This document shows, one piece after another, positions 3,001 through 39,000 of a DNA stretch of 40,216 bases (positions within the stretch are counted from its first letter, which is position 1; every line of letters begins with the position of its first letter). The stretch comes from an uncultured bacterium (lineage in GTDB: Bacteria; Fidelibacterota; Marinisomatia; SCGC-AAA003-L08; GCA-002704045). Where the stretch lies: the NCBI GenBank assembly GCA_964439775.1, contig CAYTPF010000001.1, positions 761 to 40,976 of the forward strand. Reading direction: 5' to 3'. A program made the position numbers and the translations under genes. The notes under the pieces are model-generated. The model did not search any database, was not told the origin of the DNA, and saw nothing but the letters and a program-made list of their open reading frames with translations.

Positions 3001-6000
3001 CGCCATCCACGGAAATTCCGGTTGCTGTTTCGCTTTCCAACGTGAAGAAGTTCTCAGCTGGAATGATGCTTGCTTCTTGTCCGTCATAGGCCCACTCGAG
3101 GCGCATGCGATCACTGCCGTCTTCTTCGAACATTTCCAATTCGAAGGGATACAGACTTCCACTTTGCATCGTGAAGGTGCCTGAACTGCTATACGACTCG
3201 TTATCAGAGGAAACAGACTGGCTCCAGTTATTGAAGACCTCCGTACCCCCGATCGTTAGCCGGGCGCCATCATCATGGTAACCGTGGAAAGTGATCTCTC
3301 CATCAGCGGGCGCCTGAATAAGACCCGTCCACCTTACGGCAATATCACTATATGCACGGGTCAGCGTAATAGTATCGATGCCTTCGCCGAGATTGATGAG
3401 AGAGTAGTCGTCGACACCTGTGAATGTGAATGAGGAGTTGAGATCATCACCGAGGGTTGTGGCGACACCTTTGGTTCCGTCGGCGGAGAAGCGCTGGGCC
3501 CGGATGTCGTAGCTGGAGCCGCCGCTATGGCCGCTGCTGTCCTGCCAGGTGACCACGAAACCACCATCGACGAGGGCGGTAACCGACGGCTCACTCTGGG
3601 TGCTGCTATTATATGTGTTAACCCGGAACTCATCGTTGAACGGGGTTCCATCAGCGTTATAGATCTGGCCACGGATATCTGAGGATCCGTCGTTGTACCA
3701 GGTCACGACGAAACCACCATCGGCAAGCCCGGTTACGGAAGGCGTATATTGATTATTGGAGATATAATCGCTGACAATCGGCATCTCATCGCCGACCGGG
3801 CTTCCGGCGGCATCGTAGCGCTGACCCATGATGGTATATGAGTGGTGTTGGTCGCCGTAGTAGGACGCGTAAGTGACGATAAAGCCGCCGTCACTCAAGT
3901 CTGCAACCGACGGCGCATACTGAGTGTGATAGGTGCCGTCATTGACCCGGAAATCAGACCCGGCTTCTACCGGTGTCGTCAGCGCATCACCATTGGCATC
4001 CTTGGTGGTGAAGATCTGCGCCCGGATATCATCGCTTGAGCCTGTCGTTGCGTCGTCGCCGCTCTTATCATGAGAGCTGCCCTGAGAATCCCGCCAGGTG
4101 ACCACGAACTGGCCGTTACCAAGTCCGGCGACCGAAGGCTCATACTGAGAGCCGGTGTCCGCATCGGCATTGATCAGGAACTCATCGCCCACCTTGACAG
4201 AGTTGGCATCAAAGCGCTGGCCGAAGACATCGACACCGGAGCCCTCACGGGAATCTGTGGCACCATTGTTATCGCGCCAGGTCACGACAAAGCCGCCGTC
4301 ATCGAGACTGGCGATTGACGGATCGTACTGATCGTCGTCAATCGTCGTATGGATCTGGAACTCGCCACCCTGTGGCTCGCCGGAGGCACTGTAGTGCTGG
4401 CCGTAGACACCGTAGCTGCTGCCCGCATCTTGGTACCGCGAGCCCCAGGTGATGACATAACTGCCGTCTTCGAGGCTCGTGACTTCCGGGTTCCTCTGGG
4501 TGTGACCCGTGTGGGTGTTGACCCGGTACTCGCCGCCAATGGGATCGCCGAGAATATTATAGTTCTGGGCATAGACGTCGTCCCGGTTCTCATCGTACCA
4601 GGTGGTGACAAAGTTGCCGTCACCATAGGCGCTCACCGAAGGATTGTGCTGGTCCCCACTGATGTTGGCATTGACCATGAACTCGCCGGTCTCGGTGACC
4701 GAAACCGTCAGTTCAGCGCCGTCGTCAAAACGGAGCATCTCGATGTCATACAGGGTATCGGTACCCTCGTTACCGTCCGCGACATTAAGATCGGTCACCG
4801 TCATCGTGGCGAGATTGATGGCGTAATCAGAAGCGTCCCCAAGGAACGTGGCAACGTCATACCCTTCGCCACCGCGGAGGATGTCGTCACCAAGGCCACC
4901 GCTCAGAATATTGTCGTTGGCATTGCCGAAGATCTCGTTGTCGGTCGCGCTACCGATACCAGTTATTGACAGCTCGCCGCTGAGATACAGCTCTTCGACG
5001 TTGTCCCAAAGGGTCGTCGTCTCGAGCGCCGAGTAGACGGTATCGATGCCACCGTTGGCACGCTCGATAACCGTATCATTGAGGTCGGCTTCGCTGATGC
5101 TGTACGTATCGTTACCGTCGCCACCCTCCAGCATATCCGATCCGGCACCGCCGCTCAGGAAGTCATGCCCGGCGCCGCCCTCAAGCGTGTCGTCACCGAT
5201 GTTGCCGGTTAGGACATCGTTACCGGAACCGCCGACCAGCTGATCATCGCCAGTTGCGCCATACAGATGATCGTTGCCGGTACCACCATCCACATAGACG
5301 CCGGCATCACCCTTGACTTGAACAAAGTCATTGCCGCCACCCAGATCGACCGTCTCAACATTCGTCACCGTCAGCGTATCCCGGGCATCCCCGAAGGTCA
5401 GGGTATCGATGCCGGCACCAAGATCGACATTGAGGCCGAGCTGACCATCGGCCAGGAAGATGTCTTCATTGGCAGCTGTGCCGGTCAGTTCGGCCTGGCT
5501 CGCCGGCGTACCGTCGCTGTCGAACCGTCTGGAGAACACGCCGTAGCTGTGATCATAGCTGCCGGAACTGTTCGGGCTGTCCCTGTAATCGGACATCCAC
5601 GAAACCGCAAATCCGCCATCGGCAAGAGCCGCAATCGAGGGCTGGTTTGAATTGTATGAATTATCGGGATCAACTTCGATCTCGCCGCCGACCTTGGTGC
5701 CGTCCGCATTGAAGACCTGGGCTCTGATATCGTCATTATTGCCGTTGTACCAGACGGCGACAAAGTTGCCGTTGGTCAGCGTGGCAACGTAAGCGTCACT
5801 CTGAGTACTGTTGGTCGTCGAGTTGATCTGGAACTGATCCCCCGACATGGATACGGCGTCTTCGCCTTCAACGTTGCTGGTGGTAAACACCTGGCCGAAG
5901 ACACCCCAACCGCTGGTGTCCGTACCCGGACGGTTGGCATGGGTCGTCTCATCTCCCCAGGTAACGACAAACTGACCGTTGTCGAGCCCGGTGACATCCA

Positions 6001-9000
6001 CTTGGGACTGATTGCCGCTCGTCCAGGTATTGACGGGGAACTCATCACCACGAACCTCACCGTCCGAACCGTAGCGTTGGCCACGAATACCATAGCCAGA
6101 AGTATCGTCGCTATCTTGCGAGGTATTGTCTTGCCAGGTGATGACAAACCCGCCATCCGACAGAGAGGCCACCGCCGGATGGGTCTGCTCTCCTGACGTA
6201 TAGGTATTGACCCGGAACTCACTACCGGAAGGTGTGCCATTAGCATCGTAACGTTGGCCATAAATACCGTAGTCGCTGCTACCCGTATCCTGGTAGCGCG
6301 AGTGCCAGGTGACCACATAGCCGCCGTCAGCCAACGCCGTGACTTCCGGTCCTGTCTGATCGTCGTAAGTCTGGGTATTGATCAGAACTTCCGGACCCTG
6401 AGCAACACCGCTGGCATTATAGAGCTGGCCGCGCACATCCCAGCTCTCTCCACCACCAATCTGATTGTTAGAGCCACTGCTGTCCTGCCAAGTGATGAAG
6501 AAGCCGCCGTTCTCAAGACCGGTAACTTCCGCCCGCTCCTGTTCGTTCCCTGTCCAGGTATTGACCTGGAACTCTTCGCCAAGAGGTTGGCCGCTGGCGC
6601 CATAGCGCTGGGCAAAGACACCGTCACCGGAGCCGTCCTGATTATAGGATTCCCAAGTAACGACATAACCGCCGTCGGTCAGTCCGGCCATGGACGGCTG
6701 CTGTTGGTGGCCTTCAATGTAGGTATTGACCTGGAACTCTTCGCTGTCTGTCGACGTAAACGTGACTTCGGTTCCGTCACCGAAGCGGACGCTCTCAATA
6801 TCTCTGAGCGTATCCGTACCGCCGTCACCGTCTGCGGTGTTGGCGTCGATGATCTGGCTGTTGGTTACGTCGACCCTGTACGCGTCCGCATCACCCTCGA
6901 AGACGGCGACATCGTCACCCTCGCCACCGTCCAGCACATCGTCACCAAGGCCTCCGACAAGCGTATCGTCGCCAGCCTGACCCTGCAGATGATCGGCACC
7001 GTCGCCACCCGACAAGACATCACCACCAACGCCGCCAATCAGAAGGTCATCGCCGTCATCGCCGTAGACCGATGAGCCAATCTTTGCCGTGCCGGAGACG
7101 ACAATCTCCGCATTAAACGTATCCTGCGTAACACTGGCACTGCCCAGGGTTACGGTCTGAACCGCGTTATCACTGAGCGTTCCACCATCAGTTGCGGTTG
7201 CAGTCAGAGCAAACGACGTACCCTCACCCGCGCTCAGAATAACTTCGTTAACACCGCCGCCGGTCGTCGCCGTTACGTCGAGCCCGGCTCCGTTCACGGC
7301 CGACACCAACTGTTCTCTGACATCGGTCATGGTGTCGCCGGCGACCGCCGTGTACGTCACATCCTGATCATCAAGGGTCAGCGTGTAGCTATCGCCCGCT
7401 TCAATGTCGCCGAACAGACGAACCGCTTCGAGGGTGGAGCCGGTGATATCCGCTGACTGGGCCGAAGAAGCAAACGTGACGGGGGCACCGCTGGCATCGA
7501 AACGGTGGCCGTAAATGCCGTAGCCATTGCCATCCTGTCCGGCCGATTCCCAACTGACGAGGAAGCCGCCATCCACAAGAGCCGTCACCGACGGATCCTG
7601 CTGGCTTCCCTGGGTCTCTGCATTGACCCGGAACTCACCACCGACCTCGACACCTTGGCTGTTGTAAAGCTGGCCATAGACGCCGTAGCCGCCGCCGTCC
7701 TGCATGCTCGACCAGGTTACGACAAAGCCCGCATCCGTCCCGGTCAGGCCGGTGACGTCGTGCATCTTCTGGTCGCCGGCAATCTCTGTATTGGCCAGGA
7801 ACTCACCGCCGACCTTGTTGCCGTTCTGATCAAATACCTGACCCTGAATGTCGTAACCGCTGCCGTCATTGCTGGTGGTGTTGTCTTCCCAGGTAACGAC
7901 GAAGCCGCCGCCGTCCAGGCGGGCAACCTCAGGCTGATAACTTGAGCTGTGCTGACTGACTTCGAACTCGCCGCCTTGTGGGCTGCCGTCCCGGTCAAAG
8001 ATCTGGGCGAAGGTCTTGTTGTGGCTGTCGGAATACCACGTCACCACAAACCCGCCACCATCCAGATCCGTAACGGATTGCTGATACTGGTTGCTGGAAG
8101 TCGTGGTATTGACCCGGAACTCATAGCTCTCGGCTTCGCCTTCCGCATCATACATCTTGCCGTAGACGCCCCAGGTGTTGCTCGAGTCCTGGTAGTAGGA
8201 ATCCCAGGTGACAACGAAGCCGCCGTTATCAAGCGCCGCAATCGAGGGCTCCTGCTGATCCCGATTGGTGTACGTGTTGACCTGGAACTCGTCACCCTTC
8301 GCCGTTCCGTCGGCACCGAACCGCTGACCGAAGATACCGTTGTAGCTATCGTTCTGGCCCTGCTCTTGATAGGTGCCCTGCCAGGTGACGACAAAGTCAC
8401 CGCTCTTCAGTGCCGTGACACTCGGTTTAGTTTGCTGTGCGCTCGAGTTCGAATTGTACGTATGGACCTGGAACTCACCGCCCAGCATCGCGCCGTCGGC
8501 ACTATGGAGTTGCCCGTAGATCCCGTATCCGCTGCCGTCCTGGCTCTCGGATTCCCAAGTCGTCACAAAATTGCCGTCTTCCAGACGCGTCGTCGACGGG
8601 TTCTGCTGATCGCCATCAGTATAGGTGTTGATCTGGAACTCGTTGGCGCCCGATACCATGGACGTCAGCACCAGTTCGCTGGCGCTATCGCCACCGCCGG
8701 CCGTGACCATGGATGCCGCCTGGGCATCGGTATTGATTGCGCCCACCAGGCCGGCCCGGACCTCGACAAGCGTGTCACCCGGCTGTGTCTCATAGCTGAC
8801 GTCATGGCCGTTAACGGTGACCGTGTAGATATCCCGGACCTCACCCGAAAGCGTGATCTTGCTGACCTGGCTCGCCACCACGGTTCCGTCGATCGTCACC
8901 ATGTCATCGCCGTCACCTGCATTGACGATCTCGGTATCGCGGACGATCGCCGAATCGTCACCATCACCGAGAGTGATGGTGTCGTTGCCGGCGCCAAGAT

Positions 9001-12000
9001 CGATCAGCAGGTTGGTCGCACTCGCAACCGCCTCCGTATCGTCACCGTCCGTTCCGGTGTACAGCGTCATCTCCGCCGGCGTCGCACCCGGCGTATCGCC
9101 GGTCATGCTGACATCGAAGCGCTGACCGTAAATACCGTAACCCGAACCATCCTGACCGCTGGATTCCCAGGTGACCATGAAGCCGCCATCGGCAAGAGAG
9201 GCTACCGACGGGTCGACCTGCTGGCTCGAAATATAGGTGTTGGCCATGAACTCGTCGCCAACCGGCGTGCCCGTGATGTCGAACAACTGACCGCGAATAT
9301 CCGAGCTGGATCCACCGTTCTGGCCACTGTCGTCCTGCCAGGTGACAACAAAGCCAGCGTTCGTGCCCTCAAGAGCCGTCACCGACGGCAGGTACTGGGA
9401 ACTGCTGGTCCAGGTGTTGATCCGGAAATCCCCACCCAGGGCCTCCGGCGTTGTTAACGCATCACCATTATCGTCAACCGTGGTAAAGATCTGGCCGCGA
9501 ACGTCGTAGCTGGAACCCGTTGTGCTGTCGTTATCGTTCGTGTCGTGGTAGCTGCCATGGTCATCACGCCAGGTAACGATGAACTTACCATTGCCGAGAT
9601 CAGCCATCGCCGGCTCGTACTGCGCGCCGCTGTCCGCATCGGCATTGACCAGGAAGTCCTCGCCGACCTTCTCACCCGCCGCATCAAAGCGCTGACCAAA
9701 GACATCAATACCGCTGCCGCCATCATGGCTGCCGCCATTGTTATCACGCCAGGTGACGACAAAGCCGCCGTCCGACAGAGAGGTAATCGCCGGATCATAC
9801 TGACTGCCCGACGTATAAGTGTTCACCAGAATCTCGTCGGCGGACACAATCGGCGTATCGACCGGATTGCCGTCCGCATCCGTCACGCTCACAATCTTGG
9901 CGAAGATGTCGTGGCTGGAGCCGCCACGTGAACCCGCGTTGCCGTCGTCATCGCGCCAGGCCACCGCAAAATTACCATCCGCAAGTGCCGTGATCGAACC
10001 TTCGTACTGGCTGCCGGAGGTATAGGTATTGACGATAAACTCACTGCCCTGCGCCGATCCCGTTGCATCATAGCGCTGACCAAAGACGCCGTAGTCCCAG
10101 CCACCGGCGTCATAGAGACCGTCCCAGGTAATGACGAAGCCGCCGTCCTCGAGCGCCGTGATATCTGGCCGCTGCTGATAATAATAAGTCTTCGTATTGA
10201 CCTGGAAGCTCTCGCCCGAGGGCAATCCGGAAGGTCCGTACACCTGGGCGTAGATGCCCTGCTGACTACCATCCTCGCCATAGGAATCCCAGGTCACCAC
10301 GTAGCCGCCGTCGGCAAGGCCGGTAACCGCCGGGTTGAGCTGGTCATTCATGCCATAGGACGTATTGACCTGGAACTCTTCCAGGGTCTCGGTCGTATAA
10401 CCGGCGGTCTGCGTCGTCGAGCCTGTATCGGTCGTCGTCGTCGTCGTCGAACCGCTGCCCGATCCCGCACCTTGCGCCGCCAGAGCATCTACCGCGTCCG
10501 CTTGCGCCGAAACCGCAGCCGCATCAACCGCTTCACCCGCCTGCGCCGCGCCACTTTGTTGCGCGGCAACGCCGCTCGCCGAAAGCGCGGCATCGGGAGC
10601 CGATACTTGATAGTCGGTCACCGTGACCAGGCCGCTGAGCGTCGTCACAGCACTATCCGCCGTGTGTGTCAGGGTCGTGTCAGTACCATCGTCCCCAATC
10701 GCGTAGTCGCCGTCATCAAACCGCAGCGTCTCGATGCCATAGAGCGTATCGGCATCGCCGGCGCTATCCGTCACCGTCAGGACGCCGGCCTCGACCGTCA
10801 CCGTGTAGTCCGTGAAGTTCCCGCCGAAGATCGCGATATCGGCGTCCGCACCCCCAGCAAGGATGTCACGGCCTTCACCACCAATCAGGGTATCGTCGCC
10901 GTCACCGCCGACCACCGTGTCGTCGCCGCCGCCACCACGGACGAAGTCGTTACCATCACCGCCCTGGAGAATGTCATCGCTGTCGCCGCCGTAAAGGGCA
11001 TCGTTCCCGGCTTCACCGTCAACCCGCGCACCAAGCGCATCACCGGCGCTGAACACCTGGGTCGCATTTAGTGCGCCAGCACCCGTCGCATCCACCGACA
11101 GACTGAACTGCTGCGGCTCACCATTGGCATCAAAGCGGCGGGCGTAGATATCTGTGCTTGAACCGCCACGGTCGCCGCCGCTGCCATCATGATCGGCCCA
11201 GGAAATCAGGAAGCCGCCGTCGTCAAGCCTACTGATTGTCTGCTCGTTCTGCGTCCCCGAAAGATGCTCATCGTTGGCGACAATCTCATCACCAACCTTC
11301 TGAGGCGTGCCGCTGACCGGATTACCATTAGCATCCGTGGTCGAGAAGGCCTGGCCGTAGACGTCTCCATTCCAGTAATACCAGGCAACGGCAAAGCCTT
11401 CGTCTGTAGCCGTAACCTCGGGATATGCCATATGGATGTCCATCGAGGTATTGATCCGGAACTCGTCACCGTCCGGGGCCCCGGTTGCGTCGTAGCGCTG
11501 ACCGAAGACACCGTAATGGGAGCCGCCATCAACGCTCGAATGGGTCGAATGGCTGGTCCAGGTGACAACGAAACCGCCGTCATCAAGCGAGGCAACCGAC
11601 GGGTATTCCTGGGTTCCCGATTTGGAATTGATGACCGTACCGTTGCTATTCTGCGTTGCGCCGTCGCCGCTGGCGTTGACCAGAAACTCGTCAATGCCCA
11701 CAACCGGTGTGTCTACCGGGCCGTTACTGCCATCCGTGGTCGTGAATGTCTTGGCAAAAATATCGTGACTGGATCCCTCGCGACCATCCGCACTGCCGTC
11801 TGAATCTTCCCAGGTCACCACAAAGCCATCACCGTGCGCGGCTATCGAGGAGTGGTACTGGGTCCCGCCGGCGTAGCTGTTGACCAGGAACTCGGCACCC
11901 ACTTCCGTACCCGTCGCGTCATAGCGCTGACCGTACACATCCGTGCCACTTCCTGGGTCTGCATTATTGCTGCCTTCGTTATCACCCCAAAGGATGACAA

Positions 12001-15000
12001 ACCCGCCGTCCTGCAACGCCGTGATCTGAGGATCATTTTGCGTGCCGCTGACGGCCGTGTTGACCAGGAACTCATCGATCTGGGTGATCGGCGTATCAAC
12101 AGGCGTTGCGCCGTCGTGCGTCGTGAAGATCTTGGCGCGGATATCTGTGCTGCTGCCGTCCCCGTGACCGCTGTCGTCCTGCCACGTCACCACGAAGCCG
12201 TCACCATGCGGGGCTACCGATGCATAATACTGAGTGCTGCTTGTATAGCTGTTGACCATGAACTCATCGCCAACCGCCTGTCCGCCCGCATCGTAGCGCT
12301 GACCGAAGACACCGCTGCTATCTTGAGCACCACTCCCATGCCAAATAACAACGTAGCTACCATCGCTCAGCGTTGTGCTTGATGGATCGTTCTGACTGCT
12401 CGATACGTAGCTGTTGACCCGGAACGCACCGGCGCCGGCCTCATTGGCCCGCACAATAATGTCATCAGAGCCGTCACCGATCATCGCCGTGACCGCTGCC
12501 GACACATCGGCATCGCCGTTGATGGCATCAATCAGGCCGGCGCGCACCTCGGCGACATCGTCGCCGGCCGCAGCCGTATAAGTCACCGTCGTGCCGTTCA
12601 CGGTCGCCGTGAAGTCTTCACCCTCGGCAACCGTGCCGCTGATCGTCATCCGGTCCGTCTGGTGCGCGAAGTTCTCACCGCTAACAACCGCCAGGTCGTC
12701 GCCACCACCGAGGTTCACTTCTTCGACATTGGAGACCGTGATCGCATCTGCCTGATCGCCCAAGTCGACCCGGTCGATACCGTCACCAAGATCGATGCTA
12801 ACGCCGCTCTGGGCCGCATCGAAGACCAGTATCTCGTCCGCCGAACCGCCAATCAGCTTCGCTTCCGTCGCCTTACTGCCGTCGGCGTTGAAGTGCTGGC
12901 CGTAAATGCCGTAGGAACTGGAGTAATCCTGATAACGCGATTCCCAGGTGACGACGAAGCTGCCATCGTCGAGAGCCGTCACCGACGGATCTTGCTGATC
13001 ATGGCTCGTATAACTATTAACCCGGAACTCAGAGCCCTGCTCGGCACCGGTGGCATTGAACACCTGACCATAAATACCGTAGCCCGAACCATCCTGGTTG
13101 CTGGATTGCCAGGTGGCAACAAAGCCACCCTCACTCAACGCCGTCACCGACGGATAGCTCTGGGTGCTGCTCGTATAACTGTTGACCCGGAACTCGGAGC
13201 CCTGCTCGGTACCATCGGCATTGAACATCTGCGCATAGACGTCCGCACGTCCACCGTCGTACCAGGTGACGACAAACGCATCATCGGCAAGCGCCGTCAC
13301 CGACGGATAGTACTGCTCACTGGACGTGGTATCGGTGTTGACCAGGAACTCACCATCACTGTGCGGCGTGCCGTCAGCTGCGAAGCGCTGACCGTAGATG
13401 CCGTACTGGCTGCCATCCTGGCCGTTCGACATCCAGGTGACGATGTAACCGCCGTCACTGAAACTGGTCACCGACGGTTGTTGTTGATGGTTATTGGTAT
13501 GGGTGTTGACCTGGAACTGACCGCCCGCAACCGCTGTCGGCGTATCCACACCCGTTGTCGTAAACTGCTGGCCGAAGACAGCGTAGTTGCTGCCATCGGT
13601 GAACCCGGCGTCTGTCCGGGTCGTATTGCCCGCCTCATCGCCCCAGGTCACAACAAAGTTACCGCTGCCAAGATCCGTCACCGATGGATGATGTTGGTCA
13701 CCCGACGTGTAACTGTTGACAGCAAACTCATCGCCCAACATCTGTCCATTGCTATCAAAACGCTGGCCAACGATGCCGTAGCCAGCATCATCGTAATCGG
13801 CAATGTCGCCATCTCGTGTGCTGTTCGATTCCCAGGTAACGACGAAGCTACCGTCGCTCAGCCCCGTAACCGATGGCTCGCTTTGGTGATTATGCGTATC
13901 GGTATTGACCCGGAACTCCTCACCAAGGGCTTCGCCGCCGTTGGTATAGAGCTGGCCGTAGGTGTTGTAATAGCTCCCGTCGTCGTCCTGGTTATAGGAT
14001 TGCCAGACCACCACATAACCGCCGCCAGCCAGCTTATCGACCGATGCATTGACCTGATGGTTGTGTGTAAAGGTGTTAACCCGGAACTCGTCTTCCGCAT
14101 CACCGGAGAAAGTCAGCTCGCCGTCATTGAACTGGATCGTCTCGACGTCCTTACCCAGCGTGTCGGTGCCATCATCACCGTCGGCAAGATCACCGTCAGT
14201 AATCGTCCGGTTGGTCATGTCGAGGCGGTAGTCCGACATCTCTCCGGAATAGAGAGCAACGTCATCTCCGTCGCCACCGGCAATCATGTCATCACCGGCA
14301 CCACCGATCATCACATCATCACCGGAACCGCCCTGGATCAGGTCGTCACCAATGCCACCATCAATGCGGTCGTCGCCACTACCGCCCTGAAGCTTGTCCT
14401 CACCAGCGTCACCTTTGAGAACGTCATCGCCACCCGAACCGGCAATCCGGTCATCACCATCACCACCGGACAGGTTGTCCGCAGCACCGCCGCCTATCAG
14501 TGCATCGTCACCATCGCCGCCGTAGACGGCGCCGAAGGTATCGGTGCCGCTGAGCTCATGGCTGACCGTCGCCGCATTGTCATCCGTGCTCGCCAGCGAT
14601 GTCGTGTTCTGGGTGCTGCCGCTGGCCGCAAACGTCGCTCCCGCCGTCGTCGCCGTCAGGATGATCTGGCCGTCTTCGGAACCCGCGCTCGCCGTCACCG
14701 TTGTGCTGATCGTAGCGTCGGCATCAAGACTGGTTAGTAAGCTGTCGCGAATGTCGGCAATGCTCTCACCCGTCGAGACCGTGTGGGAGACACTGTCGCC
14801 ACCAATGCTGAGTGTGTAGCTGTCACCCGCCTCGATGGTACCAGCAACCGTCACCTGGCTGACCTGGTTCACATTGGCACTGGTGTCACTGACCGTCGTT
14901 ACCGTCGCGCTGTCCGCCGGTGCAACCGACGTCTGCAGGGCTGTCCCCGCATCAACGGTGCTGAGAACGATCGTCGAAGCACCCTCGCCTTCGGCCCTGA

Positions 15001-27000: not shown

Positions 27001-30000
27001 TACCATTGCCGAGATCAGCCATCGCCGGCTCGTACTGCGCGCCGCTGTCCGCATCGGCATTGACCAGGAAGTCCTCGCCGACCTTCTCACCCGCCGCATC
27101 AAAGCGCTGACCAAAGACATCAATACCGCTGCCGCCATCATGGCTGCCGCCATTGTTATCACGCCAGGTGACGACAAAGCCGCCGTCCGACAGAGAGGTA
27201 ATCGCCGGATCATACTGACTGCCCGACGTATAAGTGTTCACCAGAATCTCGTCGGCGGACACAATCGGCGTATCGACCGGATTGCCGTCCGCATCCGTCA
27301 CGCTCACAATCTTGGCGAAGATGTCGTGGCTGGAGCCGCCACGTGAACCCGCGTTGCCGTCGTCATCGCGCCAGGCCACCGCAAAATTACCATCCGCAAG
27401 TGCCGTGATCGAACCTTCGTACTGGCTGCCGGAGGTATAGGTATTGACGATAAACTCACTGCCCTGCGCCGATCCCGTTGCATCATAGCGCTGACCAAAG
27501 ACGCCGTAGTCCCAGCCACCGGCGTCATAGAGACCGTCCCAGGTAATGACGAAGCCGCCGTCCTCGAGCGCCGTGATATCTGGCCGCTGCTGATAATAAT
27601 AAGTCTTCGTATTGACCTGGAAGCTCTCGCCCGAGGGCAATCCGGAAGGTCCGTACACCTGGGCGTAGATGCCCTGCTGACTACCATCCTCGCCATAGGA
27701 ATCCCAGGTCACCACGTAGCCGCCGTCGGCAAGGCCGGTAACCGCCGGGTTGAGCTGGTCATTCATGCCATAGGACGTATTGACCTGGAACTCTTCCAGG
27801 GTCTCGGTCGTATAACCGGCGGTCTGCGTCGTCGAGCCTGTATCGGTCGTCGTCGTCGTCGTCGAACCGCTGCCCGATCCCGCACCTTGCGCCGCCAGAG
27901 CATCTACCGCGTCCGCTTGCGCCGAAACCGCAGCCGCATCAACCGCTTCACCCGCCTGCGCCGCGCCACTTTGTTGCGCGGCAACGCCGCTCGCCGAAAG
28001 CGCGGCATCGGGAGCCGATACTTGATAGTCGGTCACCGTGACCAGGCCGCTGAGCGTCGTCACAGCACTATCCGCCGTGTGTGTCAGGGTCGTGTCAGTA
28101 CCATCGTCCCCAATCGCGTAGTCGCCGTCATCAAACCGCAGCGTCTCGATGCCATAGAGCGTATCGGCATCGCCGGCGCTATCCGTCACCGTCAGGACGC
28201 CGGCCTCGACCGTCACCGTGTAGTCCGTGAAGTTCCCGCCGAAGATCGCGATATCGGCGTCCGCACCCCCAGCAAGGATGTCACGGCCTTCACCACCAAT
28301 CAGGGTATCGTCGCCGTCACCGCCGACCACCGTGTCGTCGCCGCCGCCACCACGGACGAAGTCGTTACCATCACCGCCCTGGAGAATGTCATCGCTGTCG
28401 CCGCCGTAAAGGGCATCGTTCCCGGCTTCACCGTCAACCCGCGCACCAAGCGCATCACCGGCGCTGAACACCTGGGTCGCATTTAGTGCGCCAGCACCCG
28501 TCGCATCCACCGACAGACTGAACTGCTGCGGCTCACCATTGGCATCAAAGCGGCGGGCGTAGATATCTGTGCTTGAACCGCCACGGTCGCCGCCGCTGCC
28601 ATCATGATCGGCCCAGGAAATCAGGAAGCCGCCGTCGTCAAGCCTACTGATTGTCTGCTCGTTCTGCGTCCCCGAAAGATGCTCATCGTTGGCGACAATC
28701 TCATCACCAACCTTCTGAGGCGTGCCGCTGACCGGATTACCATTAGCATCCGTGGTCGAGAAGGCCTGGCCGTAGACGTCTCCATTCCAGTAATACCAGG
28801 CAACGGCAAAGCCTTCGTCTGTAGCCGTAACCTCGGGATATGCCATATGGATGTCCATCGAGGTATTGATCCGGAACTCGTCACCGTCCGGGGCCCCGGT
28901 TGCGTCGTAGCGCTGACCGAAGACACCGTAATGGGAGCCGCCATCAACGCTCGAATGGGTCGAATGGCTGGTCCAGGTGACAACGAAACCGCCGTCATCA
29001 AGCGAGGCAACCGACGGGTATTCCTGGGTTCCCGATTTGGAATTGATGACCGTACCGTTGCTATTCTGCGTTGCGCCGTCGCCGCTGGCGTTGACCAGAA
29101 ACTCGTCAATGCCCACAACCGGTGTGTCTACCGGGCCGTTACTGCCATCCGTGGTCGTGAATGTCTTGGCAAAAATATCGTGACTGGATCCCTCGCGACC
29201 ATCCGCACTGCCGTCTGAATCTTCCCAGGTCACCACAAAGCCATCACCGTGCGCGGCTATCGAGGAGTGGTACTGGGTCCCGCCGGCGTAGCTGTTGACC
29301 AGGAACTCGGCACCCACTTCCGTACCCGTCGCGTCATAGCGCTGACCGTACACATCCGTGCCACTTCCTGGGTCTGCATTATTGCTGCCTTCGTTATCAC
29401 CCCAAAGGATGACAAACCCGCCGTCCTGCAACGCCGTGATCTGAGGATCATTTTGCGTGCCGCTGACGGCCGTGTTGACCAGGAACTCATCGATCTGGGT
29501 GATCGGCGTATCAACAGGCGTTGCGCCGTCGTGCGTCGTGAAGATCTTGGCGCGGATATCTGTGCTGCTGCCGTCCCCGTGACCGCTGTCGTCCTGCCAC
29601 GTCACCACGAAGCCGTCACCATGCGGGGCTACCGATGCATAATACTGAGTGCTGCTTGTATAGCTGTTGACCATGAACTCATCGCCAACCGCCTGTCCGC
29701 CCGCATCGTAGCGCTGACCGAAGACACCGCTGCTATCTTGAGCACCACTCCCATGCCAAATAACAACGTAGCTACCATCGCTCAGCGTTGTGCTTGATGG
29801 ATCGTTCTGACTGCTCGATACGTAGCTGTTGACCCGGAACGCACCGGCGCCGGCCTCATTGGCCCGCACAATAATGTCATCAGAGCCGTCACCGATCATC
29901 GCCGTGACCGCTGCCGACACATCGGCATCGCCGTTGATGGCATCAATCAGGCCGGCGCGCACCTCGGCGACATCGTCGCCGGCCGCAGCCGTATAAGTCA

Positions 30001-33000
30001 CCGTCGTGCCGTTCACGGTCGCCGTGAAGTCTTCACCCTCGGCAACCGTGCCGCTGATCGTCATCCGGTCCGTCTGGTGCGCGAAGTTCTCACCGCTAAC
30101 AACCGCCAGGTCGTCGCCACCACCGAGGTTCACTTCTTCGACATTGGAGACCGTGATCGCATCTGCCTGATCGCCCAAGTCGACCCGGTCGATACCGTCA
30201 CCAAGATCGATGCTAACGCCGCTCTGGGCCGCATCGAAGACCAGTATCTCGTCCGCCGAACCGCCAATCAGCTTCGCTTCCGTCGCCTTACTGCCGTCGG
30301 CGTTGAAGTGCTGGCCGTAAATGCCGTAGGAACTGGAGTAATCCTGATAACGCGATTCCCAGGTGACGACGAAGCTGCCATCGTCGAGAGCCGTCACCGA
30401 CGGATCTTGCTGATCATGGCTCGTATAACTATTAACCCGGAACTCAGAGCCCTGCTCGGCACCGGTGGCATTGAACACCTGACCATAAATACCGTAGCCC
30501 GAACCATCCTGGTTGCTGGATTGCCAGGTGGCAACAAAGCCACCCTCACTCAACGCCGTCACCGACGGATAGCTCTGGGTGCTGCTCGTATAACTGTTGA
30601 CCCGGAACTCGGAGCCCTGCTCGGTACCATCGGCATTGAACATCTGCGCATAGACGTCCGCACGTCCACCGTCGTACCAGGTGACGACAAACGCATCATC
30701 GGCAAGCGCCGTCACCGACGGATAGTACTGCTCACTGGACGTGGTATCGGTGTTGACCAGGAACTCACCATCACTGTGCGGCGTGCCGTCAGCTGCGAAG
30801 CGCTGACCGTAGATGCCGTACTGGCTGCCATCCTGGCCGTTCGACATCCAGGTGACGATGTAACCGCCGTCACTGAAACTGGTCACCGACGGTTGTTGTT
30901 GATGGTTATTGGTATGGGTGTTGACCTGGAACTGACCGCCCGCAACCGCTGTCGGCGTATCCACACCCGTTGTCGTAAACTGCTGGCCGAAGACAGCGTA
31001 GTTGCTGCCATCGGTGAACCCGGCGTCTGTCCGGGTCGTATTGCCCGCCTCATCGCCCCAGGTCACAACAAAGTTACCGCTGCCAAGATCCGTCACCGAT
31101 GGATGATGTTGGTCACCCGACGTGTAACTGTTGACAGCAAACTCATCGCCCAACATCTGTCCATTGCTATCAAAACGCTGGCCAACGATGCCGTAGCCAG
31201 CATCATCGTAATCGGCAATGTCGCCATCTCGTGTGCTGTTCGATTCCCAGGTAACGACGAAGCTACCGTCGCTCAGCCCCGTAACCGATGGCTCGCTTTG
31301 GTGATTATGCGTATCGGTATTGACCCGGAACTCCTCACCAAGGGCTTCGCCGCCGTTGGTATAGAGCTGGCCGTAGGTGTTGTAATAGCTCCCGTCGTCG
31401 TCCTGGTTATAGGATTGCCAGACCACCACATAACCGCCGCCAGCCAGCTTATCGACCGATGCATTGACCTGATGGTTGTGTGTAAAGGTGTTAACCCGGA
31501 ACTCGTCTTCCGCATCACCGGAGAAAGTCAGCTCGCCGTCATTGAACTGGATCGTCTCGACGTCCTTACCCAGCGTGTCGGTGCCATCATCACCGTCGGC
31601 AAGATCACCGTCAGTAATCGTCCGGTTGGTCATGTCGAGGCGGTAGTCCGACATCTCTCCGGAATAGAGAGCAACGTCATCTCCGTCGCCACCGGCAATC
31701 ATGTCATCACCGGCACCACCGATCATCACATCATCACCGGAACCGCCCTGGATCAGGTCGTCACCAATGCCACCATCAATGCGGTCGTCGCCACTACCGC
31801 CCTGAAGCTTGTCCTCACCAGCGTCACCTTTGAGAACGTCATCGCCACCCGAACCGGCAATCCGGTCATCACCATCACCACCGGACAGGTTGTCCGCAGC
31901 ACCGCCGCCTATCAGTGCATCGTCACCATCGCCGCCGTAGACGGCGCCGAAGGTATCGGTGCCGCTGAGCTCATGGCTGACCGTCGCCGCATTGTCATCC
32001 GTGCTCGCCAGCGATGTCGTGTTCTGGGTGCTGCCGCTGGCCGCAAACGTCGCTCCCGCCGTCGTCGCCGTCAGGATGATCTGGCCGTCTTCGGAACCCG
32101 CGCTCGCCGTCACCGTTGTGCTGATCGTAGCGTCGGCATCAAGACTGGTTAGTAAGCTGTCGCGAATGTCGGCAATGCTCTCACCCGTCGAGACCGTGTG
32201 GGAGACACTGTCGCCACCAATGCTGAGTGTGTAGCTGTCACCCGCCTCGATGGTACCAGCAACCGTCACCTGGCTGACCTGGTTCACATTGGCACTGGTG
32301 TCACTGACCGTCGTTACCGTCGCGCTGTCCGCCGGTGCAACCGACGTCTGCAGGGCTGTCCCCGCATCAACGGTGCTGAGAACGATCGTCGAAGCACCCT
32401 CGCCTTCGGCCCTGACCATGGAACTCACATCCGGGTCGGCACCGATGGAACCCATCAGGCCGGCGCGGACGGCTGCAGCCGTATCACCCGCCTGAGCCGT
32501 GTAACTCACCGTATGTGTATCGGTGCCATCCGAGACGCTGAGGCTGTATTCCTCGCCCTGCGTAATGCTGGTCAGGTCAATCCGGTCAATCTGGTGCAGG
32601 CTGGCCACCGCATCGTGCAAGACGTCAACCGTCACCGTCGCATCATCGAGACCGCCCGCATTGTTAAACGCTTCAGCCGAAGCGAAGAAGGGGTTGGTCG
32701 AACCATCGACGCCAAAGCGCTGACCATAAATACCGTAACCCGAGCCGTCCTGGCCGCTGGATTCCCAAGTGACCATGAAGCCGCCGTCTTTGAGCGCCGC
32801 CACCGACGGATCATACTGATCGCTCGAGGTGTAGGTGTTGACCTGGAACTCGTCGCCGAAGGTGTTGCCCTGCGCGTCATAACGCTGACCAAAGATACCG
32901 TAGCTTGAGCCATCCTGACCGCTGGACTGCCACGTGACGACAAAGCCGCCGTCCAGCAAGGCCGTGACGTCTGGCTTTGTCTGCTCACTCGAGGTGTAGG

Positions 33001-36000
33001 TGTTGGCCTGGAACTCATTACCGTCCGTGCTGCCATCGGCGTTGAAGCGCTGGCCGTAGATGCCGTAGCCCGAGCCATCCTGACCGCTGGATTCCCAGGT
33101 AATGACGAAGCCGCCGTCGGCAAGGTCGGCAATCGACGGGTTGTACTGATCGTTGTTCGTATAGGTATTGACCTGGAACTCGGTGCCATCCGCATTGCCG
33201 TCGGCATCGAAGCGCTGGCCGTAAATACCGTAGTTGCTGTTGCCATTACCATTGCTGTCGAGGTCATCCTGGTAACGGCTCTCCCATGTGACCACAAAGC
33301 CGCCATCCTGGAGCGAGGCTATCGATGGGTCTTCCTGATTATTATACGTCTCCGTATTAATCTGGAAGGCATTACCCGCCTGTTCGCCATCCACATCAAA
33401 GCGCTGGCCGTAGACACTGTAACCGTCATCATCCCCGTAAGATGAACTTCCCACCGTCCAGGTTGTGACAAAGCCGCCGTCCTTAAGACCCGTAATCGAA
33501 GGCTGGGACGGTGAATAGTTCGCATCCGCAACGACAAACTCGCTGCCCGAAGGCGTGCCGTCCGCATCATAGCGCTGGCCGCGAAGGTCGTTATTGTTGC
33601 CGCTGTACCAAGCTGCGACAAAACCGCCGTCCTCAAGCGCCGTCACCGATACACTGTTCTGAGAGGAGTTGGTCAGGGTATTGACCCGGAACTCATCACC
33701 GATAGCATTGCCGCTGGCGTCATAACGCTGGCCATAGACACCTTCACCAGAACCGTCTCGGCCACTCTCATCGGTCCACATCACCACCACGCTGCCGTCA
33801 TTCAGCGTCGTCGCCGAAGGATCTTTCTGCGTGCTCGACGTGTACGTATTAATCTGAAACTCTTTCTGGACACCCGCTTCGCCGGCCCGGATCACGATCT
33901 CGTCGGCCGCGTCACCTGCCATGACAACGACCGCATCGGAAGCCCCGGCATTCAGCGCATCGATCAGGCCGGTCCGAACCTCGGCAATGCTATCGCCATC
34001 CTCGACCCGGTAGCTCACCTTCGTCGCATTGACCGTGACCGTGTAAACATCACCCGTCTCAATCGTGCCGGACAGCTTAACCACGTCCGTCTGGTGCGCC
34101 AGGTTGTCGCCGGTAACGACCGCCATATCATTGCCGTCACCGAGGTCGACCGTCTCCGTATTGGCCACCGCAATGCTGTCGTCGCCGGCGCCAAGCGTCA
34201 GCGTATCGATGCCGTCACCGAGATCGATGGCAAGACCGTCCTGAGCCGCATCAAAGATCAGCGTCTCGTCACCCGAACCGCCAATCAGCTTGGCATCACT
34301 GGCCTTCGTGCCGTCGGCATTGAAGTGCTGCGAGAAGATGCCCCAGTCGCTGGAGCCATTGTTATCTTGATACTCAGATTCCCAAGCGACAACAAAGCTG
34401 CCGTCGGCAAGCGCTGTCACCACCGGATCTTGCTGCGACTGATACGTCTCCGTGCTCACCTGGAACTCATCGCCAACCGGGACACCGCTGGTGTCATAGC
34501 GCTGGGCGAAGATCCCATATTCGTGACCGTCTTGATTGTAGCCTGCCCAGGTGACAACAAAACCGTCGCTGCCCAGGCTGGTCACCGTCGCGTCATACTG
34601 CGTACTACTTGTGTACGTATTGGCCTGGAACAAATCACCGTTCGGGACCGGCGTATCATCATCCGTTCCCGAAACCATCGTGAACTTCTGACCAAACACC
34701 GCCCAGTCGCTGTTATCGAACCCGGAACCCAGCTCATTCGAGCGGGAGTTGGTCGCCTCATCACCCCAGGTGACAACGAACTCGCCGTTGTCGAGGCCGG
34801 CCACCGAGGGCTGATGCTGATCGCGAACTGTCCGGTCCGCATTGACCATAAACTCGTCGCCAACCGTGTTGCCCGAAGCATCGAACTGCTGGCCGTAAAT
34901 GTTATAATAACCGCCGTCGCCATCCTGATTATAGGATTCCCAGACCTTCACAAAGCCGCCATCCGAGAGCGATGCCAAAGCCTCACCTGAGTTGGCACCC
35001 GGGTTATACTGATTGCTTGAGGTATAGGTGTTGACCTGGAACAGATCCCCGTCCGTCGACGGCGTATCGCCACCCACCGTCGTAAACTTCTGACCAAATA
35101 CCGCCCAATCGCTGTTGTCGAAACCGGAGCCCAGCTCGCTTGAGCGCGAGCTTGTGCTCTCGTCACTCCAGGTGATGACAAACTCACCATTATCGAGACC
35201 GGTTACCGACGGGTCATGCTGATCACGGATCGTCCGATCCACATTGGCCATGAACTCGTCGCCAACTGAACCGCCATTCGCATCAAAACGCTGACCATAG
35301 ATATTATAGTAATGGCTGTCGCCATCCTGGTAGTCCGACTCCCAGGTAACGACAAAACCGCCGTCCGACAGCGAGGCGATCGAAGGATCACTCTGGGTCT
35401 GATAGGTCGTGGTGTTAACCCGGAACTCTTCGCCGAGCGGCGCGCCGCTTGGCGTGAAGACCTGACCGCGGATGTCCGCGCCACTGCCACCATCATGACC
35501 ACTGTCGTCCTGCCAGGTCACCACATAGTTGCCATCGGCAAGACCCGTGATCGACGGATCATGCTGGGAGGAAGGCTCCCAGGTATTGACCTGAACCTCT
35601 TCCGCCTCGCTCGACAGCGTCAGTTCGCCGTCACTGAAGCGAACCGTCTCGATGCCATCCAGCGTATCCGTGCCGTCGTCACCATCCGTTGTATTGATAT
35701 CAGTGACCGTGCCGGCATCCGTATCCAGGCGGTAATCCGACATCTTCCCGGAGAACTCGGCAACGTCACTACCGTCGCCACCCTTCAACGTGTCGTCCCC
35801 GGCGCCGCCGATCAGGACGTCATCACCACGGCCACCCTTCAGCGTGTCGTTACCGCCAGCACCGTCGAGGATATTGGCCCCGCCGCTGCCTTCAATCACG
35901 TTCGCCGCGTCGTTACCCGTACCAGAGACCGCATCCGGACCGCTGAGATCCAGCTCTTCGATATTGTCACTCAGGGTGTAACTCTCACCCGTGCTGATCA

Positions 36001-39000
36001 CACGGTCTGCACCCTCACCCGTCAGTTCCGTCACCACATCGTCGGCACTGTTGACCGTATAGGTGTCGTCGCCGTCGCCACCAATGAGCGTATCCGCACC
36101 AGCGCCGCTGGTTATCCGATCATCACCGCTGCCCGCCGTAACGACAGCACCGGTCTCACCCTCGATCGTCAGCGTGTTGTCGCCTTCGCCAAGGTTGACC
36201 GTCTCCACATTCTCGACACGAAGCTGATCATCGCCGGCACCAAGCGTCAGGCTATCCGTACCCTCACCAAGATCAACCGCACGCTCATTCATCGTCTGAC
36301 TGAAGGTCACCGCTTCATCGGCAACGCCACCGGTAAAGCGGATCGTCGACAGCGGCAGGCCGTTGGCATCATAACGCTGACTGTAGATGCCTGAACCACT
36401 GCTGTCCTGTCCGTCCTCCGACGTCCAGGTGACAACAAAACCACCGTTATCGAGTGCCGCAACCGACGGATCATGCTGAGAAGAGTTGGTATAGCTGTTG
36501 GCCATGAACTCGTCGCCAACCGGCGTACCCGTACCATCAAACATCTGACCACGGATATCCGCACCGGAACCGCCATCATGGCCACTGTCGTCACGCCAGG
36601 TGACGACAAAACCGCCGTTATCAAGGGTTGTCACCGACGGCTGATACTGGGAACCCGACGTGTAATCGTTGATACGGAAGTCGCCGCCCAGGACCTGTGG
36701 CGTCAGGATCAGATCGCCATCATCATCGGTCGCAGTCGTCGTAAAGATCTGACCGCGGACATCGTAACCGGATCCTGTCGCGCTGTCGTTGTCGTTCGTA
36801 TCGTGTGAGCTGCCACTGTCATCACGCCAGATCACCACGAACGTGCCATTGCCAAGATCGGCCATCGCCGGCTCATACTGCGAGCCGCTGTCCGCATCGG
36901 CATTGATCAGGAAGTCGTCACCAACCTTCTGACCCGCCGCATCGAAGCGCTGACCAAAGACATCAATACCACTGCCACCGTCATGACTGCTGCCCTTGTC
37001 ATCACGCCAGGTGACGACAAAGCCACCGTCTGAGAGCGATGTAATCGCCGGGTCGTACTGGCTGCCCGACGTATAGGTGTTCACCAGGACTTCATCTGCG
37101 TCAACAATCGGCGTATCGACCGGATTACTGCTCGCATCCGTCGTCGTGAAGGTCTTAACGAAGATGTCGTTGCTGCTGCCGCCTTGGCCATCATTACTAC
37201 CGTCACTATCGTACCAAGCCACAGCAAAACCGTCACCGTGGGCAACGATCGCCGGATCATACTGCTCGCCCGAGACATTCGTATTGACGAGAAGTTCCTC
37301 GCCAATCATCTCGCCATCCACATCGAAGCGCTGAGCCCGAATGTCGTAGCTAGAACCGGCATCATGGCCGCTGTTATCACGCCAAGTGATGACAAACCCG
37401 CCGTCGTTCAGCGTTGTCACCGAGGGCTCATACTGATGGCTCGAGGTATAGGTGTTGACCCGGAACTCATCACCGATCAGCGCACCCGTCTCATTGAACA
37501 GCTGAGCTCGGATGTCGTAATTAGAACCGCCGCTATGGCCGCTGCTGTCCGCCCAAGTCACCACATACTTACCGCCGGCAAGGCCTGTCACTGAAGGCGT
37601 ATACTGCGTACCTGAGACGTACGTATTAACCTGGATCTCGCCGTCGTTATCGTCAGAGACTTCCAGTCGCTGACCGTCGGCAAAGGCAAGCGTCTCGACA
37701 CTCGTTAGGCTGTCCGTGCCGTCATCGCCGTTCGTTGTATCGACATCAGTGACCGTAATCGTCGTGCCATCTGCACTGGTCGTGACCCGGTAATCAGAGA
37801 TGTCGCCGGCGAACGTCGCCGTATCCGAGCCCGCGCCGCCATCAATCGTATCGTCACCGGCGCCGCCCGTTATAACGTCACTGCCCGAGCCCGCATTAAT
37901 CTGATCAACACCTTGGCCACCGTCCAGTGTGTCCATGCCAGACCCAGCGTTCAGGACATCGTTACCAGAGCCGCCAACGAGCGTATCCGAGCCAGAGCCG
38001 CCAATTAGGATGTCCTCGCCGGAACCGCCGTCCAATAAGCTGCCCGCGTTGTTCGCAAACAGGCGGTCGTCGCCACCCTCGCCAAAGACGTTGCTCGCCT
38101 CATCGCCCGCGACCGTAACAACATCAGCACCGCCACCCGCGTACACATACTCCGTGCCAGAAACAAAGAAGGTGCTGTTGATGCTTCCGGAAGCGGATGG
38201 CAATGCACCACCCCAGTCACCTTCAAAATTAATCGTCGTATCAATGCGTGTGCTGTATATCGAGCCGCTGTTGAAGTCGCCTGTGCTGCCAGTATTGGTG
38301 AAGTACTCGGCGCTCAATCCGCTGATATAATTATTGCTCTGGATCGTAATGAGGTCATCTACCGAAGAGCCAGTCAGTGTAATCCTGCCATCAAATGTAG
38401 ATGTCACCGACAAATCGCCATCATCGAACGAGAGCGTTTCCACCTCCAAAATTGAGTCAGTGCCCAAAGAAGGATCGATGTTCGCAATTGTCAGAGTGCC
38501 GTAATCATCGACGTTAAAGGTATAATCGGACTTATTGCCGGCATAAATTAGCGTATCTGAACCAGCCCCACCCGTAATCATATCGTTTCCGCGGCTCGCG
38601 GTTATAGTGTCGTCGCCAGCGTTCCCATCTATAACATCATCGCCATCACCGCCATTGATCGCGTCATTACCCAATCCGCCATCGATGAAGTCATTTCTCG
38701 TACTGCCAAGGAAGGTGTCGTTCCCGGATCCACCTTCGATACTCTCGATATTAACGAATGTATCCGAACCTATGTCAGTCCCGGTCGCACTACCCGTTGA
38801 CATATCAACATCGATGCTTGTGGAAATATCCCGGTAATCGGCGGTATCAAATCCGTCACCACCATCAATTTGATCATTTCCAAGACCACCACTGAAGTAG
38901 TCGTCTCCACCCGCCCCCATAAGAGTATCGTTACCGTCGGAGCCTTGAAGAATATCGTCGCCTTCACCACCATCCAGGAAGTCGTCGCCACCTGAGCCGG

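Follow-up and report, generated by a model that had tools for sequence, protein, structure and literature searches.

How can two parts of one protein domain lie 11,605 codons apart in a single reading frame, and is such an arrangement natural, decayed or a product of assembly? The question is raised by a stretch of 40,216 nucleotides (nt) from an uncultured bacterium (GTDB lineage Fidelibacterota; Marinisomatia; SCGC-AAA003-L08; GCA-002704045), taken from contig CAYTPF010000001.1 of assembly GCA_964439775.1 (positions 761 to 40,976 of the forward strand) and hereafter called the window. Minus-strand frame 0 is one open reading frame (ORF) without stop codons over the full length of the window (13,405 codons), whereas all other frames are rich in stop codons, and the window is an internal piece of one giant gene from a marine bacterium encoding an RTX-type, presumably secreted, surface protein. 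Within this ORF, one PA14 domain, a lectin-type domain, is divided into its N-terminal 48 and C-terminal ~106 residues, which enclose two copies of a super-repeat of 5,801 amino acids (aa), here called U. The preliminary description of this DNA had placed the duplicated block exactly inside one PA14 domain, with break points and flanking sequences that agree with our direct sequence comparison; it had interpreted the block as a one-off event of illegitimate recombination, and had listed a chimeric or concatemeric assembly artefact and a genuine nested-domain architecture as alternatives. We propose that this PA14 domain is probably a natural split host for the U block.

Results

Coordinates below are window positions, and features lie on the minus strand unless stated otherwise. 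Positions 3360-20761 and 20775-38176 match over 17,402 nt with 0 mismatches and are shifted by 17,415 nt (5,805 codons) relative to each other. The two U copies (copy 1 in protein order at 20775..38176 and copy 2 at 3360..20761) are separated by 13 unmatched nt at 20762..20774, which comprise the codons of GNAE and one wobble base. In protein order the sequence reads ...GLSAEYFTNTGSTGDFNSGSIYSTRIDTTINFEGDWGGALPSASGSIN, STFFVSG...(U)...GIDTITLT, GNAE, STFFVSG...(U)...GIDTITLT, RAYSDIAVRWTGLIQAP..., and the overall order is RTX flank, GLSAEYF...WGGALPSASGSIN, U, GNAE, U, RAYSDIAVRWTGLIQAP...AENFF and second RTX flank. The N-terminal part of PA14 (PA14N) is encoded at 38177..38320 (aa 633-680, GLSAEYF...SASGSIN) and the C-terminal part (PA14C) at 3044..3361 (aa 12286-12391, RAYSDIAVRWTG...HDDGARLTIGG...AENFF); the chain thus runs through the first ~48 PA14 residues, exits before the VRWTG strand, passes through the 5,801-residue U and returns to PA14. 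The insert edges overlap by 2 nt (GT) alone, and removal of 3362-38176 leaves a stop-free frame of 1,800 codons, as expected from the earlier claim that this deletion would keep the frame.

The two fragments were compared with the Pfam PA14 family (PF07691), separately and after rejoining in silico by removal of 3362-38176. The C half alone matched positions 42-146 of the 147-position hidden Markov model (HMM) with 67.7 bits, above the Pfam gathering score of 24 bits, and the rejoined sequence matched positions 3-146 with 74.2 bits, whereas the N half alone gave no match. The preliminary description had foreseen two complementary partial matches and one full-length match in this comparison: the partial match of the C half and the full-length match were obtained, but the N half was recognised only by a sharper profile, the N-terminal columns of PF07691 carrying little information. 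This sharper profile, built from 548 PA14 domain instances in 147 nearest representatives, gave 33.3 bits for the N half (positions 5-47), 98.4 bits for the C half (positions 55-151) and 133.8 bits for the rejoined sequence (positions 5-151). No contiguous stretch of the native protein covers the full PA14, positions 5-47 and 55-151 being 11,605 codons apart, and full coverage is reached only once the halves are rejoined. We also considered the end of U as the source of the missing PA14 strands, as the Pfam alignment in native context extends into it (HMM positions 6-146, 72.2 bits); this candidate was rejected, since the sharper profile scored 97.5 bits on the native U end plus C half, no gain over the C half alone.

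Comparison with structures and paralogues gave the same picture. Residues 3-159 of the rejoined sequence align collinearly with residues 3-142 of PDB entry 6qdi (E 4e-27), and the alignment with 6qe7 is also collinear; the 6qdi alignment places the joint in the loop that directly precedes the conserved VRWTG strand. The rejoined PA14 is likewise collinear with two intact paralogues (P0001 and P0004), apart from 3-4 additional residues where the halves meet, and the N half is 55% identical to the N half of an intact paralogue (tblastn E 1.8e-15). In an AlphaFold2 (AF2) model of P0001 the insertion point lies in a predicted loop, in a model too poor to rely on (predicted local distance difference test score, pLDDT, 49.6, from a 7-sequence alignment); a homologue search with P0001 returned 4 matches, too few to deepen the alignment. 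The profile score of the rejoined sequence and its collinearity with structures and paralogues therefore establish that the fragments are complementary and that neither is a complete domain, as had been claimed. The conserved DD of the HDDGARLTIGG motif is kept; PA14 domains bind carbohydrates in a Ca2+-dependent manner through this DD (cis-peptide) motif together with a second loop, and such binding by the split PA14 is putative.

The ends of the insert coincide with a second interrupted module. U is built from beta-propeller blade repeats of ~55-60 aa, of which there are at least 40, together with six clusters of RTX repeats and five internal linker modules that follow the pattern ...F(N/D)ADG(T/S)KA...(I/V)DLGxGxDxLTLG-xxDD-xxxVxNxExVxLGxGxD.... 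The U-U junction, ...INLGEGIDTITLT-GNAE-STFFVSGTEYVYAGGGADVV..., constitutes a sixth, contiguous linker module with a four-residue turn, collinear with the other five if a one-residue insertion is allowed, and it matched a profile made from the five internal modules in one alignment (50.8 bits, positions 3-88). At the two outer junctions the module is divided: the insert start (38057..38176) corresponds to the C-terminal part of this beta-roll-like module (STFFVSGTEYVYAGGGADVVTVAGDE..., 16.5 bits at the right outer junction, positions 56-88), followed by canonical RTX repeats, and the insert end (3362..3496) corresponds to its N-terminal part (...FTFTGVDDYSLINLGEGIDTITLT, 31.8 bits at the left outer junction, where the match covers HMM positions 3-71 though the junction lies near position 56). 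The first PA14C residues (RAYSDIAVRWTG, 3330-3359) weakly resemble the continuation of the linker-module paralogues (AGDDSIAVANTE), and because of this likeness the MAFFT and linker-profile alignments overrun the left outer junction. Chance is its probable cause, although the likeness could have offered local similarity where the ancestral joint arose.

The U-U junction was also found in three other assemblies, 92-97% identical, in which the turn reads GTAD (L024, JGI Ga0115105_10281197) or GTAE (L050, ERZ28548084, a 17,303-nt contig with a contiguous alignment to window 24355-10626, and L051, ERZ2438579), and the contiguous linker module is present in 50%-identical homologues (L025 and L026). 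Because it is collinear with the five internal paralogues and recurs with substitutions in three assemblies, GNAE is native sequence and not filler. An AF2 model of the junction module (mean pLDDT 72) has a strand at TITLT, a short turn at GNAE and a strand at STFFV, past which short strands follow with the 9-residue spacing of an RTX beta-roll. Judged from these alignments, the insert, which amounts to whole U periods minus the 12-nt turn, begins and ends in the same turn of the linker module, so that the module is split reciprocally to PA14.

Both outer junctions recur elsewhere. The junction of PA14N with STFFVSG is present in contig_9980 of ENA assembly ERZ28548074 (L001; 541,584 nt; ~98% nt identity within U) and in ERZ28548068 (L049), and a ~58%-identical orthologue in ERZ836686 (L047) reads ...SASGDVN/NTFFVSNTE. 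At the other end, TITLT/RAYSD is present in contig_9980 (L002) and in ERZ2438567 (L046, 92% identical), and a ~63%-identical orthologue in ERZ2438880 (L048) reads ...ADTVTFT/RAYSDIGVRW. An exhaustive search of representative proteins gave 6,815 matches; among the best 150, only the split proteins P0005 and P0002 align closely through the U-end/PA14C junction, and most others begin to align at about the first PA14C residue. When 185,579 species representatives were scanned with the protein across this junction, no close relative was found, and the blade repeats alone were matched (33-56% identity, mostly in Alphaproteobacteria). Since the outer junctions are shared with independent assemblies and with ~60%-identical orthologues, the split is not an assembly artefact, and on these comparisons the architecture is real, rare and old. 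The same recurrence speaks against the chimeric or concatemeric artefact and against the one-off illegitimate recombination that the preliminary description had put forward, which was to fall if orthologues with a natively split PA14 existed; its third alternative, a genuine nested-domain architecture, is favoured by the conserved junctions.

The number of U copies is less firm. In contig_9980, PA14N (L001:10316-10495) and PA14C (L002:5562-5890) are ~17,399 nt apart, and the 1,670 nt that separate loci L001 and L002 correspond exactly to window 8921-10590; contig_9980 as assembled therefore carries one U, while the window and the three assemblies that hold the U-U junction carry at least two. 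Either the copy number of U varies, or it was collapsed in the assembly of contig_9980. An unequal homologous crossover between identical copies would convert U-GNAE-U into U with the outer junctions untouched, and would thus account for a one-U/two-U polymorphism. The strongest competing explanation accepts the outer junctions as real and takes the two-copy structure as a product of assembly, the true U number being one or more than two, or the copies being slightly different. On this account the assembler went round a repeat cycle a set number of times, or polishing evened out the copies. The absence of mismatches between the copies, the ~98%-identical contig with one U, and the contig of about one period (17,303 nt) that spans the U-U junction as a collapsed tandem cycle would are all in keeping with it, and repetitive RTX adhesin genes are well known to be misassembled (bioRxiv 10.1101/2025.09.30.679566). 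We regard it as unlikely, because the U-U junction in three independent assemblies implies at least two copies in nature, the ORF intact over 40 kb points to a high-quality consensus, and tandem repeats with perfect identity are a normal feature of RTX adhesin genes (bioRxiv 10.1101/2025.09.30.679566).

Another possibility is that the insertion destroyed PA14, and that the halves are relics, or co-opted linker or beta-strand segments, that never reassemble, the broken domain being tolerated. The distance between the halves is enormous, their reassembly is hypothetical, the N half alone is not recognised by Pfam, and the lectin function could come from an intact PA14 paralogue that lies 4.4 kb further downstream in the gene. 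The sequence constraint on the halves makes this improbable. Relative to contig_9980, PA14N has 6 synonymous and 1 non-synonymous differences and PA14C has 6.5 and 3.5, which gives ratios of non-synonymous to synonymous differences per site (pN/pS) of 0.05 and 0.14, small counts as these are, compared with ~0.2 for the flanks and ~0.1 for U. Both halves are retained in the ~60%-identical orthologues and are better conserved than the neighbouring sequence, at 64.6% (N) and 71.1% (C, in L048) identity, whereas the ends of the insert next to them reach 51% and 48.5%. On these small counts both halves appear to be under purifying selection, and the low pN/pS, the higher conservation and the retained DD of HDDGARL argue against relic halves. 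Moreover, the joint loop is near normal length (3-4 extra residues), and phase-matched insert ends are hard to explain unless closure matters.

The supposition that a split PA14 with a single U is ancestral, and that the window results from a recent tandem duplication of U whose joint was filled by 12-13 random nt, would suit the single U of contig_9980 and the identical copies in the window, but it is very improbable, since the supposed filler is collinear with five internal modules (with one inserted residue) and with contiguous modules in 50%-identical homologues, and the GTAE/GTAD junction, being present in three assemblies 92-97% identical, predates strain divergence.

Two further candidates were rejected. 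A transposon, insertion sequence or excision element would leave traces of which none were found: none of the three junctions has inverted repeats, the scans of U contain no recombinase or transposase, the edges share nothing beyond the GT overlap, and the frame is continuous. An intein or other protein-splicing insert was discarded because the Pfam scan of U has no Hint domain and each end of the insert is one half of a beta-roll-like module. Searched with Pfam over its full length, U gave PF00353 (RTX) only, with no transposase, and the NCBIfam scan of U gave nothing beyond sub-threshold RTX matches, so that the absence of a mobile-element signature reported earlier holds.

Divergence between the window and contig_9980 is uneven. 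The synonymous divergence (pS) of U is 0.018-0.042, ~2 to 10x below that of the PA14 halves and flanks (0.09-0.19), and nt identity is 98.7-99.4% in U and 92.4-96.5% in the flanks. A recent recombinational exchange of U between strains, or its homogenisation, may account for the low divergence. The profile is mosaic, with no clean step at the junctions; a sharp divergence step exactly there was seen in part only, and no claim of recent transfer is made.

The split PA14 lies between two RTX-rich flanks, and PF00353 matches to RTX nonapeptide beta-roll repeats occur in both flanks and within U. The N-terminal flank (38321..40216) consists of such repeats (PF00353, 229 bits in 12 stretches) and 'DYTF...TVTD' modules, runs off the window, and aligns collinearly with what lies upstream of the intact paralogue P0001. 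The C-terminal flank (2..3043) also runs off the window and holds RTX repeats (PF00353, 267 bits in 16 stretches), DYTF modules and one orphan domain of ~270 aa. The latter, a non-repetitive stretch (NVLSTYQVTYSPDYHH...KLPDANNVQTG, ~1300-2150) flanked by RTX repeats and a DYTF module, matched no Pfam family or PDB sequence and is the least diverged part of the C-terminal flank relative to contig_9980; it might be a ligand-binding domain projecting from a beta-roll.

The blade repeats (VNTYTSxxQxxPSVTxLxDGGFVVTW...GQRF) occur throughout U, for example at 36317-37636, and gave no Pfam, NCBIfam or PDB sequence match. Upstream of the U-U junction they model as 5- or 6-bladed beta-propellers (AF2 model, Foldseek). 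They are widespread in Alphaproteobacteria, Zoogloea and Accumulibacter genomes, with alphaproteobacterial proteins as their nearest named homologues, and have the look of a repeat family that has not been curated. The plus strand carries ORFs of up to 691 aa (e.g., 12662-14737 and 30077-32152) that run antisense to the giant gene and, together with U, occur in duplicate; plus-strand frame +1 has only 100 stop codons, and these ORFs are most likely by-products of a GC-rich repetitive coding strand and not genes.

Contig_9980 extends the view of the gene. About 4.4 kb beyond the left end of the window, the giant gene encodes on this contig a second, intact PA14 (P0001, L002:10247-10729), which shares 52.7% identity with the rejoined split domain and likewise has a DYTF module upstream and RTX repeats downstream. 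On both sides the gene continues into arrays of bacterial cadherin-like/Big_9 and Laminin_G_3 domains (L001:1-10000 and L002:11700-20966), and the ORF also runs off the 10-kb flanks taken from this contig, so that the gene is >43 kb with one U and would be >60 kb with two. The long-read assembly ERZ28548074 has many frameshifts, which split the gene into numerous called genes.

Discussion

The evidence for a natural split host comes from the complementary PA14 halves, the conserved outer junctions and the reciprocal division of the linker module, and it suggests how the protein could be assembled. In the U-U junction the strands flanking the turn are joined by four residues, so the two insert ends should adjoin on folding. 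The linker module would fold outside the cell, probably with Ca2+ as RTX rolls do, and would bring the insert ends together; with the close-termini rule for domain insertion thus satisfied, the PA14 halves could assemble and the insert would become a closed loop of 0.6-1.2 MDa. Pairing in trans between molecules would be an alternative to loop closure. We suggest, tentatively, that split PA14 and split linker might form a Ca2+-dependent clasp, which in cis would close a propeller-studded surface loop of variable copy number and 5,800-11,600 residues, or by trans N/C pairing would link molecules into a mesh.

As to origin, the N-terminal flank, PA14N, PA14C and the C-terminal flank are together collinear (51-54% identity) with the intact 'DYTF module - PA14 - RTX' unit of P0001, which contig_9980 carries 4.4 kb further downstream in this gene, and the host was therefore probably once an ordinary PA14 module. 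Into this module a whole-period slice of a tandem U array may have been inserted. One possible route is a circle popped out of the tandem array and joined by a single illegitimate crossover with the PA14 loop; another is selection, as only phase-matched inserts would let both split modules fold.

Several points weigh against a natural split host as set out here. Assembly of the PA14 halves across 5,801-11,605 residues is hypothetical, and a host domain that would fold around a megadalton insert has no known precedent; typical inserted domains have ~115 residues and are smaller than their hosts (PMC13114784). If the protein is exported by type I secretion, C-terminus first, PA14C would have to wait unfolded until the whole insert emerges. 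Perfect identity over 17.4 kb may reflect the handling of a repeat cycle by the assembler or polisher, the count of two being assembly-based, and the single U of contig_9980 may be an assembly collapse. The divergent orthologues (L047 and L048) are contigs of 0.8-1.2 kb, too short to give the insert length, and neither gene end is in the window, which leaves the signal for the type I secretion system and the retention module outside the view.

The closest known kind of system is the split domain of RTX adhesins, in which beta-roll, vWFA and CBM hosts as well as identical tandem repeats have been documented (PMC10865825, PMC12077191, bioRxiv 10.1101/2025.09.30.679566). As in MpIBP, Vibrio cholerae FrhA and Aeromonas hydrophila AhLap, a beta-rich domain is begun, interrupted by folded sequence and completed, and the RTX megaprotein context is common to them all, RTX repeats flanking the region here. 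The known inserts are single compact ligand-binding domains of ~15-30 kDa with adjacent termini, whereas the insert here is multi-domain, with 5,801 or 11,605 residues (~0.6-1.2 MDa) and variable copy number, thus 50-100x larger than usual, and the adjacency of its termini is deduced from the four-residue U-U turn. Two further differences are that PA14, normally a projected lectin, acts as the host, and that a second split module contributes one half to each end of the insert. With the tandem PA14 of Clostridium RsgI3 (PDB 6qe7 and 6qdi) and the sugar-binding PA14 of MpIBP, the rejoined sequence shares the full profile and the DD...G motif, although it is discontinuous here and its carbohydrate binding is putative. 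PA14 is reportedly itself the inserted domain in glycoside hydrolase family 3 beta-glucosidases, the opposite role.

U also resembles the identical tandem extender repeats of RTX adhesins in having perfect in-frame copies, apparent copy-number differences between strains and a collapse-prone assembly (bioRxiv 10.1101/2025.09.30.679566), but the extender repeats are ~250-650 bp with one immunoglobulin-like domain each, whereas U is 17,415 bp and its array lies inside another domain. In a survey of domain insertions in ECOD, the median insert had 115 residues and the median host 199, the insert was smaller than the host in 77%, and the termini of inserted domains were close, at a median of 14.3 Å (PMC13114784). 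The A1-B-A2 topology found here is that of general domain insertions, and the insert ends are expected to be close, given the U-U turn; the insert-to-host ratio of ~40-80 to 1 sets it apart.

Conclusions

A conserved natural case of domain insertion is seen here: a host of ~150 residues has an in-frame insert of 5,801 to 11,605 residues, and the close-termini rule is apparently satisfied in an unusual way, by an insert cut within a single turn of one of its repeat modules. For practical work this means that such architectures will escape both domain annotation and gene callers, and that a 17.4-kb identical repeat may be collapsed or expanded during assembly. If the halves do reassemble, the case would extend current ideas of the sequence distance that can separate the parts of one domain, would pose a folding problem for a protein secreted C-terminus first, and would suggest a design principle in which reciprocally split modules serve as a clasp for looped megaproteins. 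Should the clasp prove true, it would be an undescribed way to build megadalton looped or networked surface structures, and by far the largest natural domain insertion known.

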